From contig MFTH01000015.1 of the NCBI GenBank assembly GCA_001786765.1, forward strand, positions 1,548 to 65,547: a stretch of 64,000 nucleotides of DNA, in the 5' to 3' direction. The DNA comes from Candidatus Nomurabacteria bacterium RIFCSPHIGHO2_01_FULL_37_25 (GTDB taxonomy: Bacteria; Patescibacteriota; Minisyncoccia; Phycocordibacterales; UBA9973). Position numbers and translations under genes: made by a program. Positions 1,922 through 63,927 of this stretch are shown here, piece after piece (within the stretch, counting starts at the first letter, position 1; every line of letters starts with the position of its first letter). The notes below the pieces were generated by a model. It ran no database searches. It had not been told where the DNA came from and saw nothing but the letters and a program-made list of their open reading frames with translations.

Positions 1922-3701
1922 GCAATCCAATGAAATAAGATCAAGATTTTTAAAATTTTTTGAAAATCGTGGACATAAAATAATTCCTTCGGCTTCGCTT
2001 GTTCCTCACAATGACCCTTCTGCGCTTTTTAATACGGCTGGAATGCAACCTCTAGTGCCTTATTTAATGGGACAAAAACATCCGACAGGAAAGCGTATTG
2101 CAGACGTGCAGAAATGCGTGCGCACAGGAGATCTGGATGATATTGGCGACAACAGGCATCTTTCTTTTTTTGAAATGATGGGCAACTGGTCTCTTGGAGA
2201 TTATTTTAAGGAAGATGCTATCAAGTGGAGTTACGAATTTTTGACTTCAAAAAAAGAAGGTCTTGGGCTTGATCCAAACCGGCTTTATTTTACAGTTTTT
2301 GAAGGAAATGAAAATGCGCCATATGATGAAGAATCAAAAAAAATTTGGATGAATTTGGGAATTCCAGAACATCGTATTTATGCGCTTCCAGCAGATGACA
2401 ATTGGTGGAGTCCGGGAGACAATGGTCCATCAGGCCCGTGTAGTGAAATGTTTTATGATATGGTAGGTGATGTGGGTGACATAAATCATAAAGAATTTTT
2501 GCTCGCAATTAAAGAAGAGCATGTAGTCGAAATCTGGAATGATGTGTTCATGGAATACGAAAAGAAAAATGGAAAAGTTGTTGGTAAATTAAAACAAAAA
2601 AATGTTGATACTGGCGCTGGACTTGAGAGAATTACAGCGGTGATGCAAGGCAAAAAAACTGCTTATGATACGGATTTATTTAAACCTGTAATGGAAATCA
2701 TAAAAGCCAAATCAAAAAATTACAATGCTAAATCGGCTCGTATAATCGCAGACCATTTGCGCGCTAGTATTTTTATAATTTCCGAAGGCGTATTGCCTTC
2801 TAATAATGGTAGAGAATACATATTGCGTCGTCTATTGCGCAGGGCTGTTAGGCATGCGGATAATATTGGTTTTCCAGAGAATAAACTTGCTCTTAGTTTG
2901 GCAGTGATATTCATAAAACAGTACGCTGAAATTTATCCAGAATTAAAAGAAAAAAAAGATTTAATCACAGGGCAGATTCTAAAGGAAGAAAACAGATTCA
3001 GGGAAACATTGTCTAAAGGTTTAAAAGAATTTGGAAAAGGCACAGATCCGTTTATTTTATTTACGACTTATGGTTTTCCAATAGAACTCACTCTTGAACT
3101 TGCAAAAGAAAAAGGAGTAAAAATTAATATTGAAGATTTTAATAGAAAGATGATAGAACATCAGAAACTTTCTCAAACTGCATCAGCAGGGATGTTTAAG
3201 GGGGGATTAGCGAATCATAATGAAAAGACAATCAAGCTTCACACCGCGCACCATTTGCTTTTGGCCGGACTTCAAAGTGTTGTAGATAAAAATGTAAAAC
3301 AGCGAGGCAGTAATATCACTGAAGAAAGGTTGCGAATAGATTTCACTTGTGACCATAAATTGACCGAGGAAGAAAAGAAAAAGGTGGAAGATTGGGTAAA
3401 TGATAAAATTAAACGGGGGTTAAATGTCGTGCGTAAAGAGATGCCACTTAAAGATGCAGAAAAAATTGGAGCAGAAATGGAATTTGGCGCTAAATACACA
3501 GATATAGTGTCTGTGTATTTTATAGAAGATAAAGCTGGCAATATTGTGTCAAAAGAATTTTGCGGTGGTCCGCATGTCAAGAATACGACAGAATTGTATT
3601 CTTCATTACGAGAAAAATCTGGGGATAATAGCCCATTTAAAATTCAAAAAGAAGAAGCAGTAGCGCAAGGAATTCGACGCATCAAAGCTGTACTTTTGTG
3701 A
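1920..3701 (+). CDS. alaS: alanyl-tRNA synthetase, short form lacking the C-terminal C-Ala domain
   Basis: N-terminal class II core (FNTAGMQP), editing-domain HxxxH (HTAHHLL) and GGPHV; only 593 aa. Confidence 0.85.
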   Translation: MQSNEIRSRFLKFFENRGHKIIPSASLVPHNDPSALFNTAGMQPLVPYLMGQKHPTGKRIADVQKCVRTGDLDDIGDNRHLSFFEMMGNWSLGDYFKEDAIKWSYEFLTSKKEGLGLDPNRLYFTVFEGNENAPYDEESKKIWMNLGIPEHRIYALPADDNWWSPGDNGPSGPCSEMFYDMVGDVGDINHKEFLLAIKEEHVVEIWNDVFMEYEKKNGKVVGKLKQKNVDTGAGLERITAVMQGKKTAYDTDLFKPVMEIIKAKSKNYNAKSARIIADHLRASIFIISEGVLPSNNGREYILRRLLRRAVRHADNIGFPENKLALSLAVIFIKQYAEIYPELKEKKDLITGQILKEENRFRETLSKGLKEFGKGTDPFILFTTYGFPIELTLELAKEKGVKINIEDFNRKMIEHQKLSQTASAGMFKGGLANHNEKTIKLHTAHHLLLAGLQSVVDKNVKQRGSNITEERLRIDFTCDHKLTEEEKKKVEDWVNDKIKRGLNVVRKEMPLKDAEKIGAEMEFGAKYTDIVSVYFIEDKAGNIVSKEFCGGPHVKNTTELYSSLREKSGDNSPFKIQKEEAVAQGIRRIKAVLL

Positions 3702-3713
3702 TACAATTAAGCG

Positions 3714-4913
3714 ATGGGAATTTTTTCGAGAAATAAAGAAAAAAGCAAATTAGTTCTGGTTTTTGATATTGGTTCTTCTTCTGTCGGGGGAACACTTTTT
3801 TATATGGAGAAGTCCAGAATTCCTAAAATAATTATGTCCCTCCGTGAGCCCATAATTTTACAAAAAACTCTTAATATTGATAAGTTTTTATCTTCAACCG
3901 CAAAATCTCTCGATATTGTCGTTAATAAAATTTATAAAGCAGGTATCGGGAAACCCGAAGCGATTTTTTGTGTTCTTTCGTCGCCTTGGCATGTTTCTCA
4001 AATTAGAGTTATCAGACTTGAAAAAAATACACCTTTCATTTTTACTACCAAGCTAGCTGATGATTTAATTCAAAAAGAAATAGCTCTTTTCAAAGAAGAG
4101 TATTTAGCAAAATATTTACACACAGAAAGCCCGGTGAGATTAATTGAATTCAAAAATATCAAAACAATGCTAAATGGCTATGAAACACTAAGTCCCCTAG
4201 AACAAAAAACTAAAGAATTTGAAATGACTATTTTTATTTCAGTTAGCTCAGAGTATATTTTAAAAAAAATAGAAGAAACAATCAGAAAATATTTTCATTT
4301 TAAAAATGTAAAATTCTCTTCTTTTACACTGTCTTCTTTTGCGGTAGCGCGTGATATAGATATTAACCAAAAGAATTTTCTTTTAATTGATATTGGCGGG
4401 GAAGTAACAGATATTTCTATGATAAAAAAGAATGCATTACATGAATCAATTTCTTTTCCATTAGGTCGTAATTTTATAGTACGAAAAGTTGCGTCCGCCT
4501 TAAGTTGTTCGCTTAGTGAAGCGCAATCATACATTTCTCTTTTACAAGACGGACATGCGACTGATTTTATGACAAAAAAACTTAAACCAGTTATAAATAA
4601 ATTCCAATTAGAATGGTTGTATGAGTTCCAGAAATCTTTAGCCAATCTTTCTAGTGATATTTTTATTCCCGCGACTATTTATCTGACTACAGATAAAGAC
4701 TTACTAGATTTTTTTCGTCAAACAATTGAAGCTGAACAGTTTAATCAATATACCTTAACCGAATCAAAATTTAAAGTTATTTTTTTGAGCGCGGAAGTTT
4801 TTCGTAATATGGTGGTATTTGGAAATGGTGTAATTCGTGACCCTAGCCTGATTATTGATTCTATTTATATAAATCGGTTTTTAACTGACTCCGTTTTATC
4901 GGAGCGAGTATAA
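3714..4913 (+). CDS. actin-like ATPase, PilM/FtsA-like (putative)
   Basis: N-terminal LVFDIGSSSVGG phosphate-1-like motif; length about 400 aa; weak call. Confidence 0.35.
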   Translation: MGIFSRNKEKSKLVLVFDIGSSSVGGTLFYMEKSRIPKIIMSLREPIILQKTLNIDKFLSSTAKSLDIVVNKIYKAGIGKPEAIFCVLSSPWHVSQIRVIRLEKNTPFIFTTKLADDLIQKEIALFKEEYLAKYLHTESPVRLIEFKNIKTMLNGYETLSPLEQKTKEFEMTIFISVSSEYILKKIEETIRKYFHFKNVKFSSFTLSSFAVARDIDINQKNFLLIDIGGEVTDISMIKKNALHESISFPLGRNFIVRKVASALSCSLSEAQSYISLLQDGHATDFMTKKLKPVINKFQLEWLYEFQKSLANLSSDIFIPATIYLTTDKDLLDFFRQTIEAEQFNQYTLTESKFKVIFLSAEVFRNMVVFGNGVIRDPSLIIDSIYINRFLTDSVLSERV

Positions 4914-47338: not shown

Positions 47339-47710
47339 ATGTTAAAAGTTAATTTTTTACATATTTGTGAAAATGCAATAGTAGAACAGGGGAGTGGCAA
47401 TCTTTCTATTATTGGTATTTTTGAGAATATCAATGCGCAAAGTTTTCCGGCAATGCACCCCACCATGAGTGTCGTTGTTGGGTTTGAAAATAATAATCCT
47501 GGTATTTATGATACTGAACTTATATTTTTAGATGAAAAAGAGGAAATATTAAAAATCCAAGCGAAAATTACTATTGGTTCTAATCTAAAAGGTAACTGGA
47601 TATATAAGATAGTCGGCTATCAAATTCCGCGTGAAATGACTCAAAAAATAAAATTAAATTACGAAGGGAAAACTATTTGCTCCGGATACCTAACGATAAA
47701 TAACAAATAA
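47339..47710 (+). CDS. hypothetical protein
   Basis: 123 aa, no recognisable motif. Confidence 0.35.
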   Translation: MLKVNFLHICENAIVEQGSGNLSIIGIFENINAQSFPAMHPTMSVVVGFENNNPGIYDTELIFLDEKEEILKIQAKITIGSNLKGNWIYKIVGYQIPREMTQKIKLNYEGKTICSGYLTINNK

Positions 47711-47753
47711 ATCTATTACAGTATTTCAAGTAACTTTGTTATAATAATTAGTA

Positions 47754-48470
47754 ATGAAAACAAATTTACCTAACAAGGGTAAGAATTTAATAATAGAAGT
47801 TGCTGGTCAAAAATACGCTAGAATACCAATCAAGACGAACCTTGTAAATTTTGGCGATGATCTAATGTCAATTATAGAAAAATATATCTCACTAGAATTT
47901 GGAGAATTCCAAAATAAAGATTATTTAGTTATTTCAGAAAAAATAATTTCTGTCTGCCAAAATAATTTTCGTCACATTAGCACTGTGAAAGTCGGCTGGT
48001 TAGCTAAGCTCATTGTGAAAGGAGTAAAAAAGTATCCAAATGATATAGGTTTTTCTCGAGCAGAAAAAATGCAAGTGGCAATAGACATTTCAGGTAGACC
48101 CAGAATGATTTTAGCGATGATTTTAGGAATACTTGGAAAAATTGTTGGAATAAGGGGAATTTTTTGGATTGTGGCAGGGAAGCGAGTATCAGAAATTGAC
48201 GGCTTTAATCCGGACGCAATGGATATGTATAAAGAGCATGCTATTTTACCACCGGAAAATCCTGTGAAAACTTGCCAAGAAATTGAAAACAAATTTGATT
48301 TTCCGACAGTAATTATAGATGGAAATAATATAAATACAAAAATTCTTGGTAAAAGCAAAAAAGTCTTATTAAATGAAAAAGAGCTCAGGCTTATATTACT
48401 CGACAACCCAATGGGTCAAAATGACGAAATGACGCCCTTTATTGTCATCCGAAAAATGCAAAAAGAATAG
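47754..48470 (+). CDS. CofE-like (F420-0:gamma-glutamyl ligase family) protein
   Basis: ARIPIKTNLVNFGDDL...GDYLVISEKIIS pattern typical of the family; moderate. Confidence 0.45.
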   Translation: MKTNLPNKGKNLIIEVAGQKYARIPIKTNLVNFGDDLMSIIEKYISLEFGEFQNKDYLVISEKIISVCQNNFRHISTVKVGWLAKLIVKGVKKYPNDIGFSRAEKMQVAIDISGRPRMILAMILGILGKIVGIRGIFWIVAGKRVSEIDGFNPDAMDMYKEHAILPPENPVKTCQEIENKFDFPTVIIDGNNINTKILGKSKKVLLNEKELRLILLDNPMGQNDEMTPFIVIRKMQKE

Positions 48471-49948: not shown

Positions 49949-51169
49949 CTAGGGGCTAGGTTCTAATAATAGTTGTGTCGCTTTATCTAATTGTGGATCC
50001 TTTTTATCTTCTAAATCTTTTTTAATAAACTCCACTTCATAATCCGGCGTGAGTCCTTTTCCTTCAATCAAATTTCCATTAGGTGTGAGCCATTTAGCCA
50101 CCGTAATTTTAAGAAGAGTGTCTGGGGTAATTTTTATTGCTTCCTGCACTGAGCCTTTTCCAAAGCTTTGCTTCCCTACCAACTTTGCAATTTTATAATC
50201 TTGCAGAGCCCCAGCCAAGATTTCAGATGCCGAAGCAGATCCACCATCTATCAAGACAACAAACTTTAATTTGTCATTAAATACATCATAACCTCGACTT
50301 CTAAATACTTCTGGTTTTGTGTTGTTGCCATAATCTTCAGTTACAATAATTTTCCCTCCGGGCAAGAACCAGCTTGCCATATCCACCGCCGCATCTAAAT
50401 ATCCACCAGGGTTTCCTCGTAGATCCAGTAACAATTTATCAGTCCCCGATTCGGCAAATTCTTTGATTGCATTACGGAAAAGACTGGCTGAGTTAGCAGA
50501 AAAACTATAAAGTTTTATTACAAAAATACCGTTTGATTGGAGTTCTGTATCAAGGGTTGGAACATCAATGACATCTCTTACAATTTTTATTTCTATCGGA
50601 TCTTTATTCCCCTCACGAAAGATTGTGAGTACAACTTCTGTGCCCTTCTCCCCTCTTATTAATTTAATTGCTTTTTCAATACTTAAACCAGAAGTGACTG
50701 TTTTGTCAATCTTCAAAATTTTATCACCAGGCTTAATGTTTGCCCTATAAGCGGGAGTGTCTTTGAGTGGAGCGATAACTGTGAGAACTTTGTCTTTTAT
50801 GCCAACCTCCATGCCAACTCCAGTAAAGTTGCCAGCTATTTCATCTTCAAAAGCTTGCGCGTCATCCGGGTTAAAAAACACACTGTATGGGTCGTCTAAA
50901 GAGCTCATCAAACCCGAGATAGCGCCATAAATTTTATCTTGGTCAGATGTTTCATCAGCTCTGGGATATTTTTCGTTAATAGTGTTCCAGACCTTCCAAA
51001 AAGAAGCAAAATCTGCATTTGTTGCGATTTGCGTTTCTTTATTAGAAAGACCTATAACTTTATCTATTTCTGGACGATTGTGAACACCAACATAAACACC
51101 AAAAATAAAAAATAAAACAACAAGAAAAACAACAGTAGGAATATATCTTGTTTTTGAGAATTGCTCCAT
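49949..51169 (-). CDS. ctpA: carboxy-terminal processing protease (S41)
   Basis: N-terminal TM, PDZ, GNPGGYL and LIDGGSASASEI S41 motifs. Confidence 0.85.
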   Translation of the reverse strand: MEQFSKTRYIPTVVFLVVLFFIFGVYVGVHNRPEIDKVIGLSNKETQIATNADFASFWKVWNTINEKYPRADETSDQDKIYGAISGLMSSLDDPYSVFFNPDDAQAFEDEIAGNFTGVGMEVGIKDKVLTVIAPLKDTPAYRANIKPGDKILKIDKTVTSGLSIEKAIKLIRGEKGTEVVLTIFREGNKDPIEIKIVRDVIDVPTLDTELQSNGIFVIKLYSFSANSASLFRNAIKEFAESGTDKLLLDLRGNPGGYLDAAVDMASWFLPGGKIIVTEDYGNNTKPEVFRSRGYDVFNDKLKFVVLIDGGSASASEILAGALQDYKIAKLVGKQSFGKGSVQEAIKITPDTLLKITVAKWLTPNGNLIEGKGLTPDYEVEFIKKDLEDKKDPQLDKATQLLLEPSP

Positions 51170-51184
51170 AATCTAAATCAGATA

Positions 51185-51421
51185 TTATATTTCTTTTTTT
51201 ATTTCTTCTCTGTTAAAAAAGTTATTTTCTGAAAAGTTGTCAAAAGTTTTTTCTTCATTATTTTCTTTTACTTTTGATTCTTTATATAGTGTATAACTTA
51301 TGTAAATAAGCCCCAACCCGGAAAGAGTCGTTAAAACATCCTTCCAAGAATATGGAAAGCCTAGATATGGCAATACTGCCACCCAGATGCCTAAAATTAA
51401 AAGTGTGTAGACTTTACGCAT
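51185..51421 (-). CDS. small two-TM membrane protein
   Basis: 78 aa, co-directional with the fibre cluster. Confidence 0.35.
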   Translation of the reverse strand: MRKVYTLLILGIWVAVLPYLGFPYSWKDVLTTLSGLGLIYISYTLYKESKVKENNEEKTFDNFSENNFFNREEIKKEI

Positions 51422-51461: not shown

Positions 51462-52841
51462 TTATTCTTTGAATTTCTTTAGGCAGTATATTAAAAGAGA
51501 AATTACAAAAGCAATTAATAAAACAGGTAGAATGCAATATTCTTGAATCAAGCTAGCTAAAATCATCACCAAAAAAGAAGAACCTACAAAAAAAAGGTAG
51601 AATCTATTCCAAATTTCCTTTTCTGGCATTCTAGATTCTTCATACTTTTTTCTAATCCATAAATGCCAAATCATATATAATGCTAAAAGTATGAGAATGC
51701 CAATTAAAGTACAAATCGATACTAGATTATCAAAACCAGAAAGCAATACATTAGCGACTAAATTATTATCTAAATCTAGATTATCATCTTCTATTTGAGA
51801 CGCATCCCCTTCAGAATTTGTGTCAGAAAATTCTGAGCTCGTCGGACTTGAAAACCCTTCAGAATCTGAACGGTCCGTTGATGAATCATCTGTGTTTACG
51901 GAGGAGTTTCCTCCGTCTATGTTTGGATTATTTGGATTATTCGTAGCGAGTAAAGGTACTGCGAAATATTTTTCAAAACTTATAGTCGGTGGTGAAGCGC
52001 GAGAAACAACACGATAAACATAAGTTTGTCCTGGAGTAAGTCCTGTTATTAATACAGAGTGATGCAAAACTTTGGTTGGGTCTTCAATAGTGCCAGATGG
52101 GTATCCAAAATATAATGCATTCATATCCAGAGTATATAAAGGAGGAGTTGGTCCATAAACGACCTGACTAGTTGACAGAACATTCGTGTCCCAAGTTATT
52201 GTCGCTGTAGCTGTCGCTGGGAATCCGCCTACTTCCGTAATATCTACTGTTTTTTCATTAAATATAGTAAGAACTATTGGCCCTCCCCCACTTCCGCCTC
52301 CATTCGAAGGACCTCCGCCTGTCGAGGGGCCTCCGTCTGTATCATTTTCATCTCCCACAACAGTATCGCCACAATGTTTTGTCCCGCCTGAAAATCCAAC
52401 GCAGACATCAAAACCAAGAGTTTTCCCTTGATAAGAATTATCACTTGAATCAACAAAAGAAATAGTATAAGTAAAAACCTTGGATTCTCCGTTAGTAATT
52501 GCGCCTAAAGAAACTTCACCGGCAGTTGAGAGAAAATTAGCAAGAGTATCATCAAATAAAATTCCGCTAGTTCCTGCTATTTCAAGATGCAAAAGACTGC
52601 CAAAATTATCATTGTCTGTTACATTAATTGCTTCAGTTAAAATAGTCTGTGACGCTCCAGAATTATTGGTGACTGTTATCTCTCCATTTGTTTCATCGCT
52701 AGGTAGAAAGTTGGGTTTGTTAAATAATGGATCCGGGACAAATGTTACCTGAAGCGGCGCGGCGAAAACATTCGAAGTAAAACCAAAGAGCGTTATTATT
52801 GTGAGTACAGAGAATATAAATTTTTGAATTAATGTTTTCAT
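51462..52841 (-). CDS. secreted surface protein with Gly/Pro/Ser linker, acidic S/D-rich region and C-terminal TM anchor
   Basis: Classical signal peptide (..SNVFAAP), DGGPSTGGGPSNGGGSGGGP linker, C-terminal hydrophobic helices. Confidence 0.45.
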   Translation of the reverse strand: MKTLIQKFIFSVLTIITLFGFTSNVFAAPLQVTFVPDPLFNKPNFLPSDETNGEITVTNNSGASQTILTEAINVTDNDNFGSLLHLEIAGTSGILFDDTLANFLSTAGEVSLGAITNGESKVFTYTISFVDSSDNSYQGKTLGFDVCVGFSGGTKHCGDTVVGDENDTDGGPSTGGGPSNGGGSGGGPIVLTIFNEKTVDITEVGGFPATATATITWDTNVLSTSQVVYGPTPPLYTLDMNALYFGYPSGTIEDPTKVLHHSVLITGLTPGQTYVYRVVSRASPPTISFEKYFAVPLLATNNPNNPNIDGGNSSVNTDDSSTDRSDSEGFSSPTSSEFSDTNSEGDASQIEDDNLDLDNNLVANVLLSGFDNLVSICTLIGILILLALYMIWHLWIRKKYEESRMPEKEIWNRFYLFFVGSSFLVMILASLIQEYCILPVLLIAFVISLLIYCLKKFKE

Positions 52842-52845
52842 ATTT

Positions 52846-55335
52846 TTATGGTTGTGGTTCTGTGGCTATTACTTCCGGCGCTGACTCTATAATTTGTTCT
52901 ACTTCACCCGCGGTAGCTTCCGGTAAAGGTTGGGATTCTATAATAGCTCCTTCTGGTTCACTTGCGATAACAGGTTCACTTTCTGTTACTAAAACGGGAA
53001 CCTCTTCAGTTTCGGGCTCTGGTGTTGGAGGTGGTGTGACAGATTCTACTATAGTATCTACTACTTCTAATATTTTTGTTACTGCTTCTGGTACTACTGC
53101 CGGAGGAACATCTTCTATAATTTCTCTCATGGTTTCTTCTGTATTTACTTCGGGATTTATATTTCCTGCTGTCGTCATCTCTACCACTGTTTCTTCTTCT
53201 AGAAGGGTCTCTCCTTTTTCTGCAAGTAAAGCAATGATTAGTTGTATTGTGCCCTCGTCAAGTCCCGCATTTATCAAATCTTGCATACTTACACGATTTG
53301 ACTCCCCGGGTGTTGGTTCTGGGTCAACCCAAATACCGCCGTTTGGAATACGCTGATGTGATTTGCCAACTGCAGTACTTGGATATGCATGTCCATCCAT
53401 AAATATATTTGTAGAATTATATAGACGCACAGTATCACCTGTATTATTTAGACGAGCTGTCAAATTTCCAAACTCAAGAACAAGCAATCCGCCAGACGGA
53501 ATGATTGTACTTGCTCCAGCATACGGCTGTACTTGATTGGCAGTCGCTCCTGAAGCGACCACAGAGTAAAATGTTTCCGTCGCTCCTGCTATTTCTGAAA
53601 TTTTCCAATCTAAAACATCAATAGAAGAAGCGGTGGTGTTGTAAAGTTCTATCCACTCACGATCGCTCGGCGCAACACCACCGGCAGGACTAGGGTAGAT
53701 TTCATTCAGCGCTATATCAGAGACATTAGAAGGAACCGAATAAATTCCAAAGAATGGACCAACGAGAGTTATATTATTAGCGCCTCCAAGTCGTATTTGC
53801 TCAGCGCTGTAAAGCGCGCCCCAAACATCAGTGTTATTGCCTGTGGTAATGCCAAACTCATTGGGTAAGTTACTTTTAGTTGAATAAATTGTGCCGTACC
53901 AATCGTTGCTACCACCTAAACTTACCACGCCACCACTTTCTAAATATATTTTATCTGCAGTTCCACCCGTAAGATTAAAGTCAAGATTGCTACCGGTAGT
54001 TACATCGCCTACTACAAATATGAGTATCTCCCCGCCGGACACATCAGCATTTATAATATTATTCCCAGCTAGACTGAAGGAACGAAAGACGTAAGTTCCC
54101 GCAGTCAAGTTAAGTGTCTTACTGTTAGTACTTGTTAAGTCACGATAAATGCCCGGAGCTAAAGTGAGCGGAGAATTATCGGTATTTATATTTATGTCTT
54201 TACCCGCATCGGCATTTGCGCTAAAAATATTTGGTGTTGGTAGAGAAATATCAGTAAAAGTATCTGGAGTCGCTGGAAGTGGTGTCCCATCATTATTGAG
54301 TGTTCCGACGGTAGCATCACCGACAAGCGTCGGCAATACAGTATTCGGCAATGTAAGAGTTCCTAAAATATCAGCGCTGTTGCCCAAAGTAGCGCTCTGC
54401 GCATCCACATCCAAAGACGCCTGTGTGTTAGCGCCTGTAGAAAATAATCCGCCAGACACAACATCTCCATTAAGATTAGTACTGCTACCGACAGTTACGC
54501 TTGCGCCATGAACACTGCCATTTATAATGTTAGATCCACCTAGTGTCACTGAACCGTTTACGATAATTCCTTTTGCGCCTATTGTAACGTTGTCGTGGGT
54601 AGTTACCTTACTCCCTGCCCGAATGCCGAGCTGTACATTCAAGCTACCAATTTCAACGCTTCTATTACTGCCTATCATTCCACCTACAATGTATGAGCTA
54701 TTGCCTGTTTCAGTTTCATTAGTATCACTTACATCACTTGCGCCAAATACAGCAAAATCCTCAATAGGTCCATAATCCAATCCCCAAGTTTCAGCTGTGA
54801 CTGTATTAGTAATAGTTTCTGTATCGTTAAAGCCTATGGGCGATGGCCCAGTTAAATCCGTCTGCCAACCGAAATATTCAAAATTAAATTCACAAGTCAT
54901 TCCTTCTAATTCAGGCGCGTCTGATGTGAGTGTGGCGGTAAAATCCCAATTTTCTGGCGCGTTAAAATTAAACGGGCCAATTTCAAAAGTGGAGAGCGAC
55001 TCGGTAACTGGCAATCCCCCATCTAAAGAAGCTGATAAATCCAAAGCGTCACACAGACCACCTATCACGCCAGTTGTTTTTATTGTGTATTGAAATCCTA
55101 AACTTCCATCATTTGAAATTGAAATGCTTCGCAGGGCATTAATTTCTGGATTCACCTCCGGCGCAAAGTCAGCGTCAGAGTTGAGTGAAAAATCTAAAGA
55201 GGAAGTAGAGAAAAAATTACCACCGGAAGTTTCTTTATCATCATAATATGCATTTGTTTTTTCTACTCCAGAAAAGCCTAAGGTTAGAAGCAAAATTAAA
55301 GTCAAAGCTATTATTTTATTAGACTTCTTTTTCAT
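52846..55335 (-). CDS. large secreted protein: SipW-cognate-type signal peptide, beta-helix repeats, lamin-tail domain (LTD), acidic Pro/Glu-rich tail
   Basis: N-terminus ...NAYYDDKETSGGNFFSTSSLDF; repeated G-x-hydrophobic beta-helix-like segments (NVTIGAKGIIVNGSVTLGGSNIINGSVHG...); LTD signature LNEIYPSP...EWIELYN...LLVLEF...LNNTGDTVRLYN. Confidence 0.55.
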   Translation of the reverse strand: MKKKSNKIIALTLILLLTLGFSGVEKTNAYYDDKETSGGNFFSTSSLDFSLNSDADFAPEVNPEINALRSISISNDGSLGFQYTIKTTGVIGGLCDALDLSASLDGGLPVTESLSTFEIGPFNFNAPENWDFTATLTSDAPELEGMTCEFNFEYFGWQTDLTGPSPIGFNDTETITNTVTAETWGLDYGPIEDFAVFGASDVSDTNETETGNSSYIVGGMIGSNRSVEIGSLNVQLGIRAGSKVTTHDNVTIGAKGIIVNGSVTLGGSNIINGSVHGASVTVGSSTNLNGDVVSGGLFSTGANTQASLDVDAQSATLGNSADILGTLTLPNTVLPTLVGDATVGTLNNDGTPLPATPDTFTDISLPTPNIFSANADAGKDININTDNSPLTLAPGIYRDLTSTNSKTLNLTAGTYVFRSFSLAGNNIINADVSGGEILIFVVGDVTTGSNLDFNLTGGTADKIYLESGGVVSLGGSNDWYGTIYSTKSNLPNEFGITTGNNTDVWGALYSAEQIRLGGANNITLVGPFFGIYSVPSNVSDIALNEIYPSPAGGVAPSDREWIELYNTTASSIDVLDWKISEIAGATETFYSVVASGATANQVQPYAGASTIIPSGGLLVLEFGNLTARLNNTGDTVRLYNSTNIFMDGHAYPSTAVGKSHQRIPNGGIWVDPEPTPGESNRVSMQDLINAGLDEGTIQLIIALLAEKGETLLEEETVVEMTTAGNINPEVNTEETMREIIEDVPPAVVPEAVTKILEVVDTIVESVTPPPTPEPETEEVPVLVTESEPVIASEPEGAIIESQPLPEATAGEVEQIIESAPEVIATEPQP

Positions 55336-55891
55336 TTTGTATATTTTCTACAACTTCTTCTTTTTGTTTACCCTGAGCTTGTCGAAGGGCTCGCATTTTT
55401 TTAACTTCACTAAATATTTTCATCCCTTCGTCATAAATAACAATAATTGCTGGAAGGATAATAAGAACCGCAAATCCAAGAGGTTTGCGAGCCAAGTCTA
55501 TGATGTAACCCAAAAACGGAATATTAAATAAAACTTTTCCGTGAATATCATTCTGGCGTATTTCATTTGTGTCAGAGTCTTCATTGGCATCCCCTTTGGT
55601 GGTGAACATTATCACCCCACTTTGCGCGCGACTAGAGACTATGCGGTGGGTAGTCGGAATATCTTTTTTTGTGTCTTTGCCAAAAGTCACAACATCTCCC
55701 ACTGTATAATTTAGGCTTGGCTTTATGACAACAATGCTTCCTGTCTTAATGCTCGGTTCCATTGAACCAGATTGCACAATTTTTATTTGATAATTGCCTT
55801 TAATCGGGAAAAGAGCAATCAGTAAAAAAGCGATGACAATAATGATTGTTATGTAAAATGTTGTATAAAGAATTTTAAAGGCTTTATCCAT
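55319..55891 (-). CDS. sipW: signal peptidase I, SipW/Sec11 (ER-type) family
   Basis: N-terminal TM, SGSMEP catalytic-Ser motif, THRIV His motif, C-terminal TM. Confidence 0.75.
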   Translation of the reverse strand: MDKAFKILYTTFYITIIIVIAFLLIALFPIKGNYQIKIVQSGSMEPSIKTGSIVVIKPSLNYTVGDVVTFGKDTKKDIPTTHRIVSSRAQSGVIMFTTKGDANEDSDTNEIRQNDIHGKVLFNIPFLGYIIDLARKPLGFAVLIILPAIIVIYDEGMKIFSEVKKMRALRQAQGKQKEEVVENIQNEKEV

Positions 55892-55985: not shown

Positions 55986-56732
55986 TTATAGATTCACATC
56001 CGCGCACTTGAAGTTTGGATTGTTGCGATACTGTTCACCATAGATAACAAGATCAGCCGAAAGTGAATCGGTTTGAGCCTTGTCGTTCATAGATCCGCCG
56101 TTACATGTTACTTCTCCGCCAAAACCTGCGCCGGGAGCAACTACATGATTTCCTCCACATAGACTCATAGCGAGAAGTTCTGTCTGAATAGGATCAGTAG
56201 GACCATTCCCTGTTGTTGAGTCTCGAAGCGGTAAATCAGTAAAGACATCAAAGAAAGAATCAATGAGAATCGGTTCGTTGGTCTGATGCACTAGGTCCGG
56301 AACAATTTCTTTCCAAACGAGCACATGCACATTTTGACTCAATTCCCCGACAGATGCTGTTGTGTCTCCAGCGTCATCTTCGGCTTCGTTTATGCCATTC
56401 TCTTGATCGTTAAGATTTTTTTTACCGATACAGAGCCAAGCTGGATTACTAGAAACGTGGGCGCTGATACTTCGGTTGTAAATATCAGCCGGCTTTAAAT
56501 CTTCTAAAGTAAAGAATTTCTCATTCGTCAAGTTCATCGCAGGCCAACTCGCATCTTGCACGAGCGCGCCATTGTAAGTCGCTCCGAAAGAGTCAACAGT
56601 AAGATCAACTGAACCAGCGGTAAAGATATTGCCTGTTGAAGTTTCGGTATCATTAAAGAAAGCAACAGTGCCTCCTGCGACAGCTCCGGCAACGACAATA
56701 ATCACAGCCATGCTTAATAATATCTTTTTCAT
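55986..56732 (-). CDS. TasA/camelysin-like protein with SipW-cognate class signal peptide
   Basis: MKKILLSMAVIIVVAGAVAGGTVAFFNDTETSTGNIFTAGSVDL matches the AFFSDTE-type SipW-cognate N-terminus; 248 aa. Confidence 0.7.
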   Translation of the reverse strand: MKKILLSMAVIIVVAGAVAGGTVAFFNDTETSTGNIFTAGSVDLTVDSFGATYNGALVQDASWPAMNLTNEKFFTLEDLKPADIYNRSISAHVSSNPAWLCIGKKNLNDQENGINEAEDDAGDTTASVGELSQNVHVLVWKEIVPDLVHQTNEPILIDSFFDVFTDLPLRDSTTGNGPTDPIQTELLAMSLCGGNHVVAPGAGFGGEVTCNGGSMNDKAQTDSLSADLVIYGEQYRNNPNFKCADVNL

Positions 56733-56758: not shown

Positions 56759-57679
56759 TTAAAGATCAAATGGGCTAGGGTTATTTCTGTGTTGTTCAAC
56801 TTCAAACGCAATATCACCACTTAGGCTGTCAGTTTGGACTTCATTACCAGTACTCCAAGGAAGATTCCAATTTAGACCAAAGTAATAAGTCGTGCTTCCA
56901 ACCATTCTTCCATCTAAAGCTAGACCGTGACAAAGAAGATAATTATTATGACCATCTACACTTCCTCCTAAATCACCACAAGAATCTTCACCGTCTCCGG
57001 TATTATATGCATTTGTTAAGACTGAAGAAAATTCTTTTTCATCAGTTAAACTCCATGGTTGTCCTTCGTATGACTGCCAAACATTATCTCCTTCTGTTGT
57101 ATCAGGACAACTTACTACTGGAACTCCATCAGGACCTACACACTGAAATCCAGGAGTAGAACCTTGGTCAAGCCACATAGAGAATCCAGGAAGCATTGCG
57201 CTTAATAATTCTCCATCAGAATCACAACCAGGATTATTTTCTGCACTTCCTTCCGGCTCCGTACAGGTGTTATCTAAACTACCACCCAATGTCATTAAAA
57301 CTCTCCCCCACGCATCGTTGTCATAAACATGAAGAGAAATTGTGTCCTCTCCTTTGTCTCCTGGTTTAAGATCATCAAAGCTAAAGAATTTATGTACCCC
57401 ATTTTCAAGATCAGTTTCTGACCAATTGCCCATTACTACTGGACCAGTTTCGTCAGGATCTGTACAACCAACATCTACGTATCCATCTCCATTTGGTCCT
57501 GATTGTCCACCAACATATTGGTAATAATGACACTGACTGTCAACTTTCAAATCAATTGCGCCAGCGGTAAAGGTGTTACCTGTTGATGTCTCTGTATCAG
57601 AGAAAAATGCGCCTGTTGCGCCAGCAACTACAACTCCGACCACTGCTATCATACTCAAACTAAGTAATATTTTTTTCAT
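56759..57679 (-). CDS. TasA/camelysin-like protein, paralog 2
   Basis: MKKILLSLSMIAVVGVVVAGATGAFFSDTETSTGNTFTAGAIDL; 306 aa; 63% identical N-terminus to paralog 1. Confidence 0.7.
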   Translation of the reverse strand: MKKILLSLSMIAVVGVVVAGATGAFFSDTETSTGNTFTAGAIDLKVDSQCHYYQYVGGQSGPNGDGYVDVGCTDPDETGPVVMGNWSETDLENGVHKFFSFDDLKPGDKGEDTISLHVYDNDAWGRVLMTLGGSLDNTCTEPEGSAENNPGCDSDGELLSAMLPGFSMWLDQGSTPGFQCVGPDGVPVVSCPDTTEGDNVWQSYEGQPWSLTDEKEFSSVLTNAYNTGDGEDSCGDLGGSVDGHNNYLLCHGLALDGRMVGSTTYYFGLNWNLPWSTGNEVQTDSLSGDIAFEVEQHRNNPSPFDL

Positions 57680-59916: not shown

Positions 59917-61332
59917 TTACCTTGAAGCAAGCTTGGAAGCTAGACCAGTATAGTTCTCTGGAGTTATTTTCAACAATTCTTTTTTTATTTTATCACTGAC
60001 GGACAAATCATTTATAAATTTATGAATCTCCACAAGTGTCACCCTTTTACCCCGAGTTAATTCCTTTAATTTCTCATACGGCATAGCTACTTTCTCGCGT
60101 CGGAGAATAGTCTGGATAGCTTCAGTGATAACTTCTGGATGATTATCTAAATCTTGTTTTACGATATTTTCATCCACAGTAATTCCAGCTAATCCTTTTA
60201 ATAAATTTTTATAGGCCACCAAACAATGTCCAAAAGCGGACCCAAAGTTTCTCTCCACCGTAGAATCAGAAAGATCGCGCTGAAGTCTAGAGATTGGTAA
60301 TTTGCGAGCAAAAAACTCAAAAAGCGCGTTGGCTAAGCCTAGATTGCCTTCGCTATTCTCAAACTTAATCGGATTTATTTTATGAGGCATAGTTGAAGAA
60401 CCGACGGCATCCTTTATAAATTTTTGCGTAATCCATCCATCGCTAATATACCGCCAGATATCTTGATTGAAATCAATCAAGATAGTGTTAATTCTGCGTA
60501 AATTATCAAAGATTTCCACTTCACTATCATGAGGGTCGATTTGCGTTGCCGTAAGATTTAATTCAAGTTCTATATTCCTGTTTGTGTTTAATTTTTTAAT
60601 AAAATTTTTAGCAAAAAAAATCCAATCAATTTTTGGAAAAGCAACTATGTGAGCATTGAAGTTCCCTGAAGCGCCACTAAATTTAACAGAAATTTTCTGA
60701 CTCTTTAATTTAATAAGTTGTTTTTTTAGTCTTTCGCTAAAGACTTTGAATTCCTTGCCAAAAGTGGTCGGAGACGCAGGCTGACCGTGCGTGCGCGCGA
60801 GCATTGGCAACCCACTGTATTTTTTTGCAAAGTTATCTATTTTTTTTATGATATGTTCAATTTCGGGTACAATTATTTTTGTTAAAACATCACTTAGCAT
60901 CATACCCCTTGCCAGAGTGTTTGTGTCATAAGAAGTTAAAGCAAAATGTATCCATTCTGAAATATCTACTAAGCTCGTCTTAGACAACTTATATTTTATA
61001 TAATATTCTATTGCTTTTACATCGTGGTCGGTGGCCTTGAAATTTTTGTATCCTTTAATTTCTATATCAGAAATAATTTGCGCGTCTTTTTCTGATAAGT
61101 TGTACAAAGATCTAATTAAACTTTTTTCTTTGTCAGAAAATTTCTTAAGCAGTTTTATATCTGAAAGAGCTATAAGATATTCGCTTTCTACGATGATGCG
61201 ATACTTCATCAACGCCATTTCGCTAAAGTACATACTCAGAACTTCAGTATATTTCTTATAACGTCCGTCTATTGGTGAAATTGAGTTTAATGAATTTGCC
61301 ATGATTTTCTCTATTTTTGAATTACTATTCAT
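59917..61332 (-). CDS. purB: adenylosuccinate lyase
   Basis: Fumarate-lyase family signature GSSTMPHKINP; long-form PurB. Confidence 0.85.
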   Translation of the reverse strand: MNSNSKIEKIMANSLNSISPIDGRYKKYTEVLSMYFSEMALMKYRIIVESEYLIALSDIKLLKKFSDKEKSLIRSLYNLSEKDAQIISDIEIKGYKNFKATDHDVKAIEYYIKYKLSKTSLVDISEWIHFALTSYDTNTLARGMMLSDVLTKIIVPEIEHIIKKIDNFAKKYSGLPMLARTHGQPASPTTFGKEFKVFSERLKKQLIKLKSQKISVKFSGASGNFNAHIVAFPKIDWIFFAKNFIKKLNTNRNIELELNLTATQIDPHDSEVEIFDNLRRINTILIDFNQDIWRYISDGWITQKFIKDAVGSSTMPHKINPIKFENSEGNLGLANALFEFFARKLPISRLQRDLSDSTVERNFGSAFGHCLVAYKNLLKGLAGITVDENIVKQDLDNHPEVITEAIQTILRREKVAMPYEKLKELTRGKRVTLVEIHKFINDLSVSDKIKKELLKITPENYTGLASKLASR

Positions 61333-62263
61333 TTAAATTATATTTTTTTAAATTATTTTCAATTCTTTTTTCAATATCTCCTATTTCTATTTTAAAAGGC
61401 TCTCCAGTAATTTGCTCGCAAATTCTGACATATCTGCTAGAAAGTTCCATTACCATATTAAATGGAGCTTCTGGGAGTTTTTCATTTTTATATGGATCGC
61501 AATTGTCCCTAAACCATAAACGCAGAAATTCTTTATCAAAATTTTCTGGTTCTAGTCCCTCGTCTATTCGCTTTTGATATGAGCTAGCTTGCCAATAACG
61601 GGAAGAGTCCGGAGTGTGAATCTCATCTATGAGCATAATTTCTCTTTCTGGTGTAAGTCCAAATTCATATTTAGTATCCACTAAAATTAATCCCCTTTTC
61701 AAAGCGACCTCTTGCCCTCTCTCAAAAAGTTTCAAAGCAATCTGGCAAACTTTTTGCCAAATTGCTGGTTCCATAAACTTTTCTTCTATCACCATTTTAC
61801 TAGTTAGATTTCTGTCATGCATTTCATGTTTTGTAGTTGGAGTGATGACAGGTTTATCTAATTTTTGATTTTTTTTCATTCCCTCGGGTAAAACAAAATC
61901 TCCAAAATCTCTCTGACCTTTTTGATAATTCACCCAAAGAGAAGTGGAAGTCACTCCAGTAATATACCCCCGCACCACCATCTCCACGGGAAGCACCGCG
62001 CATTTTTTACCCACCACCACATTCGGATCTGGAAAATCTATCACATGATTCGACACAATGTCGCGCGTTTGTTCAAACCAGAATTTACTAGTCTGTGTTA
62101 GAACTTGTCCCTTGTATGGTATCAACGCGAGATTGCGATCAAAAGCCGAATATCTATCAGTTGAAACCATAATTATCTTGTCTTTCTGTATATAGACATC
62201 CCTCACCTTGCCAGTATATTTTTCCCCGAGATTTTTAAAATTTGTTTTTTCTAGAATATTCAT
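61325..62263 (-). CDS. purC: SAICAR synthetase
   Basis: YTGKVRDVY...MVSTDRYSAFD N-terminal signature. Confidence 0.85.
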   Translation of the reverse strand: MNILEKTNFKNLGEKYTGKVRDVYIQKDKIIMVSTDRYSAFDRNLALIPYKGQVLTQTSKFWFEQTRDIVSNHVIDFPDPNVVVGKKCAVLPVEMVVRGYITGVTSTSLWVNYQKGQRDFGDFVLPEGMKKNQKLDKPVITPTTKHEMHDRNLTSKMVIEEKFMEPAIWQKVCQIALKLFERGQEVALKRGLILVDTKYEFGLTPEREIMLIDEIHTPDSSRYWQASSYQKRIDEGLEPENFDKEFLRLWFRDNCDPYKNEKLPEAPFNMVMELSSRYVRICEQITGEPFKIEIGDIEKRIENNLKKYNLNE

Positions 62264-62284
62264 CTTATAAAAAATTAAAAATAA

Positions 62285-63406
62285 TTATTTTCCCGGCGGT
62301 GTAAGAATTATTTTTTCCGGTTCAAATATAACTTGCCGTTTACCTGCCTCTACAATACCGATATCCGCAAGAGTATACCCGCTATTTTTGCCTATTTTCA
62401 GTATTTTAGCAACTTCTTCTCTTGGCGCAAAAATATAATACCCTACTCCCCAATTAAAAGTTTTTAAACAATCTTCTATAGGAATGCCAATTTTTTTATG
62501 AAAATATTCCATAAGCGGCGGAACCGAAAGCCATGAATGAATTCTGTATGTGAATGGTCTTTTGTCAAAAGCTATTTTCCCCACACCATCGCCTGTGCCA
62601 GGCAGTAATGCATGAATCTTTATTTTGTTTTTTAATAATGACTCAACGAGCTTTACATATGAACGAGTAGGGATGAGGGCTTCTGCGCCAATAGTATTTC
62701 CATTTGCTAATTTTGTTAGAAATTGTTTTGGAAGTTCAAGAGATTTTTTAATAACTAAACTTATACCGTTTGCATGAAGCCCAGATGATGCTACGCCAAT
62801 AATATGGTCACCAACGGCTAAATCTTGTCCGGTAATTAAATTTTCTTTTGGCGCAACAAGACCGGTAACTGAACCACTCAAGCTGGCTATTTCCTTGACA
62901 GGACTTTTGGGATTAATTAAATATGTAACACTCGCGGACTCTCCAGCTGGCAATGCCATGCCTACTTCTTTACAGATTTTCAAAAATCCATTTGCAAAAT
63001 CTTTTGACCTTTTTTTATCTCCATACCAATCGCTTCGACTTGCTTCCAGTTGGTCAGTAAAAACTACCGGCATAGCGCCTTGAGCAATGACGTCGTTCAC
63101 CACAATGAGCGCAGTATCAATAGCGATAGAATCATAATAAGATTTACCGGTTTTCTGATACATCCATTCCGCAATCCAATTTTTATTACCGAGGTCTTCC
63201 TGAGTTTGGCACCAGATATGACTTTTTCCTCCGCGGTATTCAAATACTGCGCCATGCGCGTGTGTTGCGTCTTTATTAATGAACACGCCTCTTTTATTTG
63301 GAAACTTTAAAGTTTTTTTTCCCGCTGTGATCATTGCCATTTTGAATGGCTCCATAACAGTATAATCTACCCCCGCCTTTGCATACTCGCTTTTTTTATT
63401 GCTCAT
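62285..63406 (-). CDS. purM: AIR synthetase-family protein (PurM-like)
   Basis: AGVDY, DTALIVVNDVIAQGAMPV, SSGLHANGISLV resemble PurM motifs. Confidence 0.6.
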   Translation of the reverse strand: MSNKKSEYAKAGVDYTVMEPFKMAMITAGKKTLKFPNKRGVFINKDATHAHGAVFEYRGGKSHIWCQTQEDLGNKNWIAEWMYQKTGKSYYDSIAIDTALIVVNDVIAQGAMPVVFTDQLEASRSDWYGDKKRSKDFANGFLKICKEVGMALPAGESASVTYLINPKSPVKEIASLSGSVTGLVAPKENLITGQDLAVGDHIIGVASSGLHANGISLVIKKSLELPKQFLTKLANGNTIGAEALIPTRSYVKLVESLLKNKIKIHALLPGTGDGVGKIAFDKRPFTYRIHSWLSVPPLMEYFHKKIGIPIEDCLKTFNWGVGYYIFAPREEVAKILKIGKNSGYTLADIGIVEAGKRQVIFEPEKIILTPPGK

Positions 63407-63927
63407 TATTTATTTTCCAAGTATTTTTTAAATCCAATTTTTAGAAGTTTTTCTCCTTTAATTTTATTATCTTCTTCTAGCTTTTTTTTATAAATAATCA
63501 TTTTATTTTCTAAACTTTTGTCACTTATCGCAAGTATTTGCAGAGCTAAGATTCCAGCATTTTTCGCCGCATTTATTCCGACGGTTGCGACCGGCACTCC
63601 GGGAGGCATTCCCACAGTTGAGAGCAAGGAATCAAGTCCGTCTAAAGTTTTTGCTTTTGTTGGTACCCCAATAATAGGGAGAGTCGTGAGAGATGCTGCC
63701 ACCCCTGCCAAATGCGCCGCTCCGCCGGCGCCCGCTATAATAATTTTAATTCCTCTGTTTTTAGCATTAGTTACATATTTGCGCGCCAATTCTGAACTTC
63801 GATGCGCAGAAGCGACTGTCATTTCGTAAAATACGCCAAATTCCTCAAGTATTTTTGCCGCTTCAGACATTACTTCTAAATCTGAATCTGAACCCATAAT
63901 TATTCCAACTTTAATGTCTTTTTTCAT
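63406..63927 (-). CDS. purE: N5-CAIR mutase PurE
   Basis: [11 protein letters not shown]...AGGAAHLAG signature. Confidence 0.9.

Follow-up and report, generated by a model that had tools for sequence, protein, structure and literature searches.

A lamin-tail protein with a predicted TasA-like head, encoded beside sipW, is a candidate fibre subunit of Patescibacteria

Within a TasA fibre, each subunit uses its N-terminal strand to complete the sandwich of the next, and TapA, with an N-terminus resembling that strand, has been proposed as the first donor (PMC9674648; PMC10151520). In the bundling pili of Pyrobaculum, AbpB has been proposed to start the filament by donating a strand and to bear adhesin domains distally (PMC9245690), and Wang et al. 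(2022) noted that proteins of the TasA/camelysin family PF12389 occur in Patescibacteria (PMC9245690). Here we describe a locus in a 64-kb stretch of DNA from Candidatus Nomurabacteria bacterium RIFCSPHIGHO2_01_FULL_37_25 (contig MFTH01000015.1; the whole stretch is called the window below). Its central gene, at 52846..55335 on the minus strand, encodes an 829-amino acid (aa) protein that carries a SipW-type N-terminus, a predicted TasA-like head, a beta-solenoid, a lamin-tail domain (LTD) and an acidic tail. We conclude that this protein is most likely the large accessory subunit of a four-component cassette, whose other members are TasA-like pilins, SipW and a membrane-anchored TasA-like protein. 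All cassette features described below lie on the minus strand.

The open reading frame (ORF) is a genuine gene and not a chance ORF in sequence of 35% G+C (the figure for the window), because homologues exist elsewhere and an identical copy of the protein is encoded on one metagenomic ENA contig of 59.6 kb. Thirteen relatives with the same overall layout can be aligned; nine close ones share 47-72% identity with the 829-aa protein and align over nearly its whole length, and three with a different central region share 31-33%. These relatives come from other metagenomes, and the sole named one is a 'MAG: lamin tail domain-containing protein [Patescibacteria group bacterium]', where MAG stands for metagenome-assembled genome. 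AlphaFold2 (AF2), run on the 13-sequence family alignment (mean predicted local distance difference test score, pLDDT, 73.5), divides the protein into a beta-sandwich at about residues 45-185 (pLDDT ~85), a solenoid at 195-530 (>90), an LTD sandwich at 541-671 (~80), a helical hairpin at 684-706 (~60-65) and a disordered tail at 715-829. An earlier note on this DNA had named domain search and structure prediction as the checks of its LTD and beta-helix; Pfam returned the former and AF2 the latter.

The protein starts with a signal-peptide-like segment (MKKKSNKIIALTLILLLTLGFSGVEKTNA, residues 1-29, 55249..55335), followed by T27-N-A29|YYDDKETSGGNFFSTSSLDFSL, and this N-terminus is in register with the SipW-type N-termini of both neighbouring TasA-like proteins. 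The three SipW-type proteins of the locus have in common T-x-A and then [YF][YF]xDxETSxGNxFxxxSxD, with T27, A29, D33, E35, T36, S37, G39, N40, F42 and D48 of the 829-aa protein invariant in both neighbours. The mature part of this motif, which we call the 'donor-strand' motif (YYDDKETSGGNFFSTSSLDFSLN, residues 30-52, 55180..55248), aligns with the pilins at hhalign probabilities of 93.7-98%. Mature TasA begins at A28 (PMC10151520); alignment with TasA would place the cut in the 829-aa protein after A29, at a predicted SipW-type site of the form T27-x-A29. The predicted P2' residue, Y31, is aromatic, as in TasA, and sites with an aromatic P2' residue are reported to be poor substrates of E. 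coli LepB (PMC10269814). The stretch after the signal peptide has a pLDDT below 50 up to residue 42, and the donor motif is unstructured (pLDDT <50) in both AF2 monomer models.

In 32 loci, LTD protein and pilins carry the T-x-A|[YF][YF]xD pattern in a common register, and the start MKKKxNKII is conserved in the homologues P0002, P0013 and P0016. Over positions +1 to +20, the mature motif resembles the pilins of its own locus more closely than pilins from shuffled loci (identity 0.488 versus 0.461; z 3.1, p 0.002; z 4.0 when scored with BLOSUM), and positions -4 to -1 at the cleavage site show no excess similarity to same-locus pilins. That the co-variation is confined to the mature part argues for a function after cleavage, not for peptidase recognition alone. 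The earlier note had described the signal as SipW-type. This description is borne out by the motif held in common with the adjacent cognate_SipW proteins, by the overlap with sipW and by adjacency to sipW in dozens of genomes; the TIGR04088 cut-off, however, is missed by the 829-aa protein itself.

By profile comparison, residues 30-185 form a predicted minimal TasA-like domain, which had been missed before. Its core is a beta-sandwich (residues 53-167, 54835..55179; AF2 pLDDT ~85-95) of minimal TasA/camelysin-like type. When a profile of the head (A4) was aligned by hhalign with a profile of 23 pilins (A6), the match extended over 144 columns (probability 97.25, E 2.8e-11) and took in the terminal ...C.F.F.Y.GWQ strand, the counterpart of ...LQFSFEATQW in TasA; with just the five neighbouring pilins, the first 27 residues alone were aligned, and the larger profiles extended the alignment. 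C95 and C148 (nt about 54892-55053) are nearly invariant across the head-domain family and absent from the neighbouring pilins, and a disulphide between them probably braces the small sandwich.

After a Gly/Pro linker of low pLDDT, the head ends in an extra C-terminal strand that bears a second, weaker donor-like motif (GFNDTETITNTVTAETWG, residues 168-185, 54781..54834). AF2 places a strand at 170-181 (pLDDT ~88), and in the hhalign alignment the segment extends past the C-termini of the pilins. Two homologues, P0009 and P0010, have no head; in these, the signal peptide (T-N-A|AF and T-L-A|AW, respectively) runs directly into the second motif.

The genes around the 829-aa gene supply the other components of the cassette. 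Two upstream genes encode TasA-like pilins with SipW-dependent-type signals, one of 306 aa (56759..57679; TIGR04088 25.6 bits, PF12389 25.5 bits) and one of 248 aa (55986..56732; TIGR04088 35.1 bits against a cut-off of 19, PF12389 27.9 against 22.5). The A6 profile, which includes both, matches B. subtilis TasA almost end to end (E 7.2e-5 for the TasA monomer, 5of1, and 9.6e-5 for the TasA fibre, 8aur). Between these and the 829-aa gene lies sipW (55319..55891), encoding a 190-aa signal peptidase I of the archaeal/endoplasmic reticulum type (TIGR02228 107 bits versus 51.85); the SipW-Bacillus model scores 125.8 bits on this product, below its equivalog cut-off of 190. The 3' end of sipW and the start of the 829-aa gene share 17 nt. 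Scanning for promoters and terminators returned 36 promoter-like sites where 26.8 +/- 5 were expected, a result too uninformative to define transcription units; one site, TTTTCA-16-TATAAT, falls in the gap that separates the second pilin gene from sipW (55977-55950).

The gene for the fourth component, a 459-aa membrane protein (51462..52841), begins 4 nt downstream of the 829-aa gene. Its product consists of a classical AxA signal peptide, a TasA-like domain without a donor motif, a Gly-rich linker, an FN3-like domain (Pfam Pur_ac_phosph_N, residues 210-288), an S/D/N-rich linker and about three C-terminal transmembrane helices. By hhalign its N-terminal domain matches both the head of the 829-aa protein (probability 97, E 8e-11, 113 columns) and the pilins (probability 97.4, E 1e-11), including the N.YQG..L.FD strand. 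In all 37 members examined of this family, the signal peptide leads straight into L.V.F..PLF.E.NFLPGD, and the 17-residue donor motif is absent; in almost every complete member, the C-terminus holds at least one hydrophobic segment. We propose that the 459-aa protein is the base, terminator or anchor of a fibre. A 78-aa ORF with two transmembrane segments (51185-51421) was considered as a fifth cassette gene and rejected, being conserved only in the syntenic relative L002. There, as here, the cassette is followed by this small protein and a CtpA-type S41 processing protease (49949-51421 in the window; L002:9453-10920), a pair not found after the other cassettes examined.

The order of pilin(s), sipW, head-and-LTD gene and 459-aa homologue is repeated on contigs of relatives, and the flanking genes differ. 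We scanned one genome per species for the LTD peptide [RG]EW[IVM]ELYN only and tabulated neighbours by phmmer; the resulting counts are lower bounds, as contigs end and divergent members are missed by single-sequence searches. Among 80 LTD loci, sipW stands immediately upstream of the LTD gene in at least 44, TasA-like genes lie upstream in at least 33, a homologue of the 459-aa protein lies downstream in at least 25, and both are present in at least 20. Across 51 sipW-adjacent loci, with the window and L001-L006 included, the median gap between the two genes is -4 nt, and the genes overlap in 35. The positive loci carry the labels Doudnabacteria, Paceibacterota, Parcubacteria, Moraniibacteriota, Zambryskibacteria, Taylorbacteria, Berkelbacteria, Wildermuthbacteria and 'Saccharibacteria', and almost all are Patescibacteria. 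LTD genes of archaea, Chloroflexi and Verrucomicrobia found in the same scan were without the sipW, pilin and membrane-protein context. The cassette also occurs in MAGs labelled Bdellovibrionales, Gammaproteobacteria, Pseudomonadales or Desulfobacterales (L017, L020, L024, L031, L034, L039, L041, L068 and L075); these are either mislabelled Patescibacteria bins or cases of transfer between phyla.

Some loci depart from the common plan. A Paceibacterota locus has two tandem head-and-LTD genes after sipW (L008:5956-8160 and L008:8187-10736) and four motif-bearing ORFs before it; a cassette can thus carry more than one candidate tip subunit. A second LTD protein, of 682 aa and with no detectable head, is encoded just upstream of the cassette in an NCBI Patescibacteria MAG (L001:3677-5725). 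In a MAG labelled Pseudomonadales, SipW-like and LTD regions stand in one ORF of 1054 codons (L049:3592-6756), which could be a real fusion, a frameshift or the result of a start over-extended by the ORF caller. In the P0016 loci (L004, at 3049-3834, and also L005 and L006), sipW has two 261-aa genes upstream, of which one is not TasA-like; its product contains QEIGHTFGLNH, which resembles the zinc-metalloprotease motif HExxHxxGxxH with the first His replaced. This protein might be a processing protease of the cassette.

How far the architecture of the 829-aa protein is typical emerges from an exhaustive search with the head-domain profile, which returned 978 cluster representatives at E<=1e-10. 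Among the top 145 new representatives, 103 have an LTD, which directly follows the head in about two thirds of the 103, and 67 of the 103 also have an acidic tail; the solenoid type of the window is present in 2 of the 145. In other homologues the middle of the protein is a different Gly-rich solenoid (P0011, P0012, P0015 and P0016), a CBM96 domain (P0013) or nothing. Relatives with a swapped middle, and the head-less P0009 and P0010, still sit between sipW and the membrane protein. Head, LTD and acidic tail thus make up the common architecture, in which the beta-helix represents an exchangeable spacer that is seldom present. The combination of parts had been thought unusual; SipW-type N-terminus, head, LTD and acidic tail instead prove standard in a large family, and only the beta-helix is rare.

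The LTD, an Ig-like beta-sandwich followed by a conserved WVDPEPTPG motif (residues 536-680, 53296..53730), is the most conserved block of the family alignment (A1). PF00932 is the sole Pfam domain of the 829-aa protein (residues 536-651, E 7.6e-12; score 46 bits, cut-off 34.3), and AF2 predicts about nine strands over 541-671. The motifs from which the earlier note had recognised this domain are located at residues 544 (NEIYPSP), 560 (EWIELYN), 629 (LNNTGDTV) and 638 (LYN), and its assignment is confirmed. Next comes a conserved helical hairpin (NRVSMQDLINAGLDEGTIQLIIALLAEKGETLL, residues 681-714, 53194..53295; AF2 helices 684-689 and 694-706), which is kept in nine close homologues. A ComEA-like helix-hairpin-helix DNA-binding motif, which would have suited the co-occurrence of LTDs with nucleases, was considered here and rejected, as a profile search against PDB and Pfam scans of nine members returned only designed helical proteins and sub-threshold noise. 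The protein ends in a disordered, E/V/P/T-rich tail (residues 715-829, 52849..53193; pLDDT <35), whose acidic, low-complexity character had been recognised correctly: its 115 residues are 22% E, 15% V, 15% P and 11% T, with a net charge of -25. We found no transmembrane segment or sorting motif in the tail and no lipobox in the protein.

Between head and LTD, the protein of the window carries a Gly/Thr/Ser/Asn-rich beta-solenoid stalk (residues 190-535, 53731..54768), a lineage-specific insertion limited to the window and to loci L001, L002, L087 and L088. AF2 predicts it with pLDDT above 90 at about 195-530; it contains 14% Gly, and the Gly-rich peptide NVTIGAKGIIVNGSVTLGGSNIINGSVHGASVTVGSS that first drew attention to it begins at residue 249. 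A beta-helix is therefore confidently predicted, as had been claimed, over some 335 residues and not the 400 or so first estimated. The proposed likeness to pectate lyase was not sustained: no Pfam beta-helix family matches the 829-aa protein even at E<=10, and no pectate or pectin lyase is among the top 50 Foldseek PDB matches. The similarities are instead to ice-binding proteins. The family profile matches the PDB sequences 8x0z and 4nu2 (E 7.7e-6 for 8x0z, over residues 379-495), and the top Foldseek PDB matches are the ice-binding structures 5uyt (E 2.4e-5) and 6bg8 (E 1.9e-3), both at probability >=0.99 and with low template modelling (TM) scores, the query being multi-domain. A 65%-identical homologue, P0004, just passes the DUF7305 model (PF23981; 28.6 versus 27 bits, residues 406-509); the 829-aa protein itself scores below the reporting level for DUF7305 and has no PF11999 match at E<=10. 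A long alpha-helix packed along the solenoid is characteristic of the IBP-1 fold, and DSSP assigns no helix between 194 and 535 of the AF2 model. We conclude that the beta-helix is real and that it is ice-binding-like, not pectate-lyase-like.

How might these parts work together? In the scheme to which we give about an even chance of being correct, the 829-aa protein would be a SipW-cleaved, donor-strand-bearing first or tip subunit, plugged into the first pilin, and the membrane protein would cap the base. Following Sec export, the adjacent archaeal-type SipW would cut after T27-N-A29, and this would release the N-terminal strand YYDDKETSGGNFFSTSSLDFSL, which is of the same type as the pilin strands. 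The released strand would then enter the beta-sandwich of the first pilin, as has been proposed for the TapA N-terminus in TasA, and a fibre would start. Closed by strand 168-185, the TasA-like head would donate a strand and not accept one, and the protein could therefore occupy one fibre end only. The opposite end would be taken by the 459-aa protein, with its TasA-like domain lacking a donor strand and its C-terminal helices held in the membrane. The distal tip would thus show the rigid ice-binding-like solenoid stalk, the Ig-like LTD and the long polyanionic tail as an adhesive or recognition end. The reasoning is that pilins able to donate and accept, a class without a donor, and a donor on a head that is closed or absent would allow a single possible order. 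With an integral membrane protein as the acceptor-only subunit, the distal end would fall to the 829-aa protein, and exchangeable middle modules are as expected of an exposed binding end. The earlier note had offered 'cap, anchor or adhesin'; a place as an accessory fibre subunit fits, and the TasA-like head together with the donor-less membrane protein would narrow the choice to a distal cap or adhesin.

Several observations weigh against this tip placement. The 829-aa protein falls below the TIGR04088 cut-off (13.6 versus 19 bits), with the match internal, at residues 169-184, and its full length gives no TIGR04088 match at E<=0.01; among its homologues, P0002 (28.3 bits) and P0011 (22.1) pass, and P0016 (14.9) and P0006 (14.0) fail. 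PF12389 likewise finds no match on the 829-aa protein even at E<=10, although homologue P0006 passes it (33.3 bits versus 22.5, residues 103-160). Foldseek searches with the head model gave weak Ig-like matches with TM scores of about 0.5 or less, including CEP192 PapD-like, FimH lectin, CfaE and CsuA/B, and TasA was outside the top 50. The second donor-like motif is weak (TIGR04088 13.6 bits; internal matches at iE 0.02-8.5 with our own motif hidden Markov model, which was built from three sequences), and we take this motif as a lead only. We infer the closure of the head by strand 168-185 (self-complementation), which does not establish that the protein is donor-only. Finally, the co-variation between donor motif and pilins is a small effect and could partly reflect genome-wide composition.

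The remaining points against a distal tip are those from which the alternatives start. The strand-donating TapA of B. subtilis sits at the cell surface, not distally, and tapA overlaps sipW (PMC10151520; PMC9674648). By analogy, the 829-aa protein could be a cell-proximal nucleator or anchor, with its LTD and tail holding it on the producer's own envelope, the fibre growing outward and the 459-aa protein acting as an assembly factor or chaperone; this would explain the donor motif and the sipW overlap equally well, and it fits the suggestion that LTDs afford membrane association, made for membrane-associated hydrolases (PMC5118699). We nevertheless consider it unlikely. Neither a transmembrane segment nor a lipobox or sorting signal is present in the 829-aa protein, whose disordered tail is strongly anionic; the cassette already has a donor-less, membrane-integral TasA-like protein that is fit only for the acceptor end; and the swapping of the middle among solenoids, CBM96 and nothing is typical of exposed binding modules, not of envelope anchors. 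A different position would follow if the head also accepted a strand, for the protein could then stand anywhere in the shaft, as a decorated pilin that both donates and accepts and whose stalk and LTD form side arms spaced out along the fibre. Homology between head and pilins runs through the whole domain, including the last FxFxYxGWQ strand, and monomeric TasA is self-complemented and still polymerises (PMC9674648), so that the complete-looking AF2 fold permits strand acceptance. Set against this are the extra donor-like strand at 168-185, which has no pilin counterpart; the head-less P0009 and P0010, which cannot accept a strand and yet keep the donor strand and the cassette position; and the gene dosage, typically one such gene per cassette against one to three pilin genes (L008 has two). 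A shaft position is therefore, in our judgement, distinctly unlikely.

It might also be that the 829-aa protein merely uses the same export route without joining the fibre, as an independent secreted or surface adhesin or matrix protein with only SipW-dependent export in common with it. TIGR04088 defines the motif as a signal-peptide class and not as an assembly element, and LTD proteins are common extracellularly outside the cassette. This explanation leaves aside a conserved motif that runs more than 20 residues past the cleavage site and co-varies with the pilins in its mature part but not at -4 to -1, a TasA-like head, and a strict order with pilins and membrane protein across many Patescibacteria lineages; we find it quite improbable. 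Lastly, since DUF3494 ice-binding proteins are the solved structures that match the solenoid best, one could suppose an ice-binding or antifreeze protein, or else a polysaccharide-degrading enzyme of the pectate-lyase type. We reject both as extremely improbable: PF11999 and the pectate-lyase families find no match at E<=10, DSSP assigns no long alpha-helix beside the solenoid, no catalytic domain was detected, and sister proteins replace or drop the solenoid and keep the rest.

These results turn an odd single protein into part of a defined and widely conserved module, for which we propose an assembly order of donor-only tip, shaft and acceptor-only membrane base. They point to a cell-surface fibre in these bacteria of the candidate phyla radiation (CPR) that is not described in the literature we searched: no paper we found there connects either SipW or TasA with a lamin tail domain or describes this cassette, and TasA, SipW and lamin-tail proteins go unmentioned in both a 2023 transposon-sequencing (Tn-seq) study and a 2024 perspective on Patescibacteria. 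These organisms account for a substantial part of bacterial diversity, and their cultivated members all live attached to other microbes; attachment experiments have mainly dealt with type IV pili, a type IV secretion system and unnamed adhesins. A bolder extension, possible but in our view tentative, is that the cassette specifies a whole pilus assembled by donor-strand exchange in Patescibacteria, with a self-complemented donor-only tip, a TasA-like shaft and an acceptor-only terminator in the membrane, serving as a second host-attachment organelle beside type IV pili. In such a pilus, the fused C-terminal copy of the donor strand would resemble engineered 'donor-strand-complemented' pilins, and the cargo would be the LTD with or without a solenoid or CBM96. 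The findings also suggest a role for one subfamily of prokaryotic LTDs, as constant cargo on the tip of a TasA-type fibre. If confirmed, the proposal would extend donor-strand assembly of the TasA/TapA type beyond Bacillus biofilms and archaeal bundling pili, provide a natural case of covalent self-complementation and offer a handle on host recognition in CPR bacteria.

Outside the cassette, two other features of the window deserve mention. On the minus strand upstream of PBP2, at 59917-63927, are genes for a purE-like AIR carboxylase, an AIR-synthase-related protein, SAICAR synthetase and adenylosuccinate lyase, a partial de novo purine pathway; Patescibacteria are usually described as being without nucleotide biosynthesis. 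On the plus strand at 47339-48470, a DUF6941 gene is followed by a gene resembling F420-0:gamma-glutamyl ligase (PF01996), which is unexpected in a genome of reduced metabolism. The 64-kb window contains no tRNA gene and no match to an Rfam family at the gathering threshold.

Among the closest known systems is TapA (YqxM) of the B. subtilis tapA-sipW-tasA operon, a minor SipW-processed partner of a TasA-type fibre, which is the kind of role proposed for the 829-aa protein; as here, it has a donor-strand-like mature N-terminus followed by a beta-sandwich, and its gene overlaps sipW (PMC10151520; PMC9674648). Despite these similarities, there are several differences. The head here is TasA-like, whereas TapA is described as a V-set Ig fold, and TapA is absent among the PDB sequence matches of both the full-family profile (E<=1) and the head profile (E<=10). 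The gene order here is pilins, sipW, 829-aa gene and membrane protein; with its solenoid, LTD and acidic tail, the 829-aa protein has three times the size of TapA; and the cassette adds a membrane-anchored TasA-like protein to the Bacillus operon as described in the literature. We suggest that the 829-aa protein may work like TapA or AbpB, but it does not belong to the TapA family, to which no homology was detected.

To the fibre subunits themselves, the head is homologous at profile level over residues 30-185. TasA/camelysin proteins (PF12389) and the archaeal AbpA pilins have the N-terminal strand and the C-terminal ...C.F.F.Y.GWQ (in TasA, ...QGNSIKLQFSFEATQW) in common with the head, which has about 155 residues compared with about 234 in mature TasA, ends in an extra C-terminal donor-like strand and is followed by about 640 residues of added modules. 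AbpB of the Pyrobaculum calidifontis bundling pili follows the same proposed logic of an initiator with a distal beta-domain adhesin (PMC9245690), a likeness of proposed role; that system has no dedicated SipW, and its domain content is different. In the chaperone-usher tip adhesins FimH, CfaE and CupB6, a pilin-type sandwich likewise docks and a second domain binds, and their folds are weak matches (TM scores of ~0.5 or less); they are, however, unrelated in sequence, there is no chaperone or usher here, and FimH accepts a strand and has no donor, a polarity opposite to that proposed for the 829-aa protein. The attached modules have relatives of their own. The solenoid is like those of DUF3494/IBP-1, DUF7305 and 'ice-binding-like adhesive' (pAdhesive_15) proteins by profile (E 7.7e-6) and fold (E 2.4e-5), and differs from them in being a spacer between two Ig-like domains with no flanking alpha-helix predicted. 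Many prokaryotic LTD (PF00932) proteins are likewise extracellular; in the present case, the domain is joined to a TasA-like head, and its gene comes immediately after sipW.

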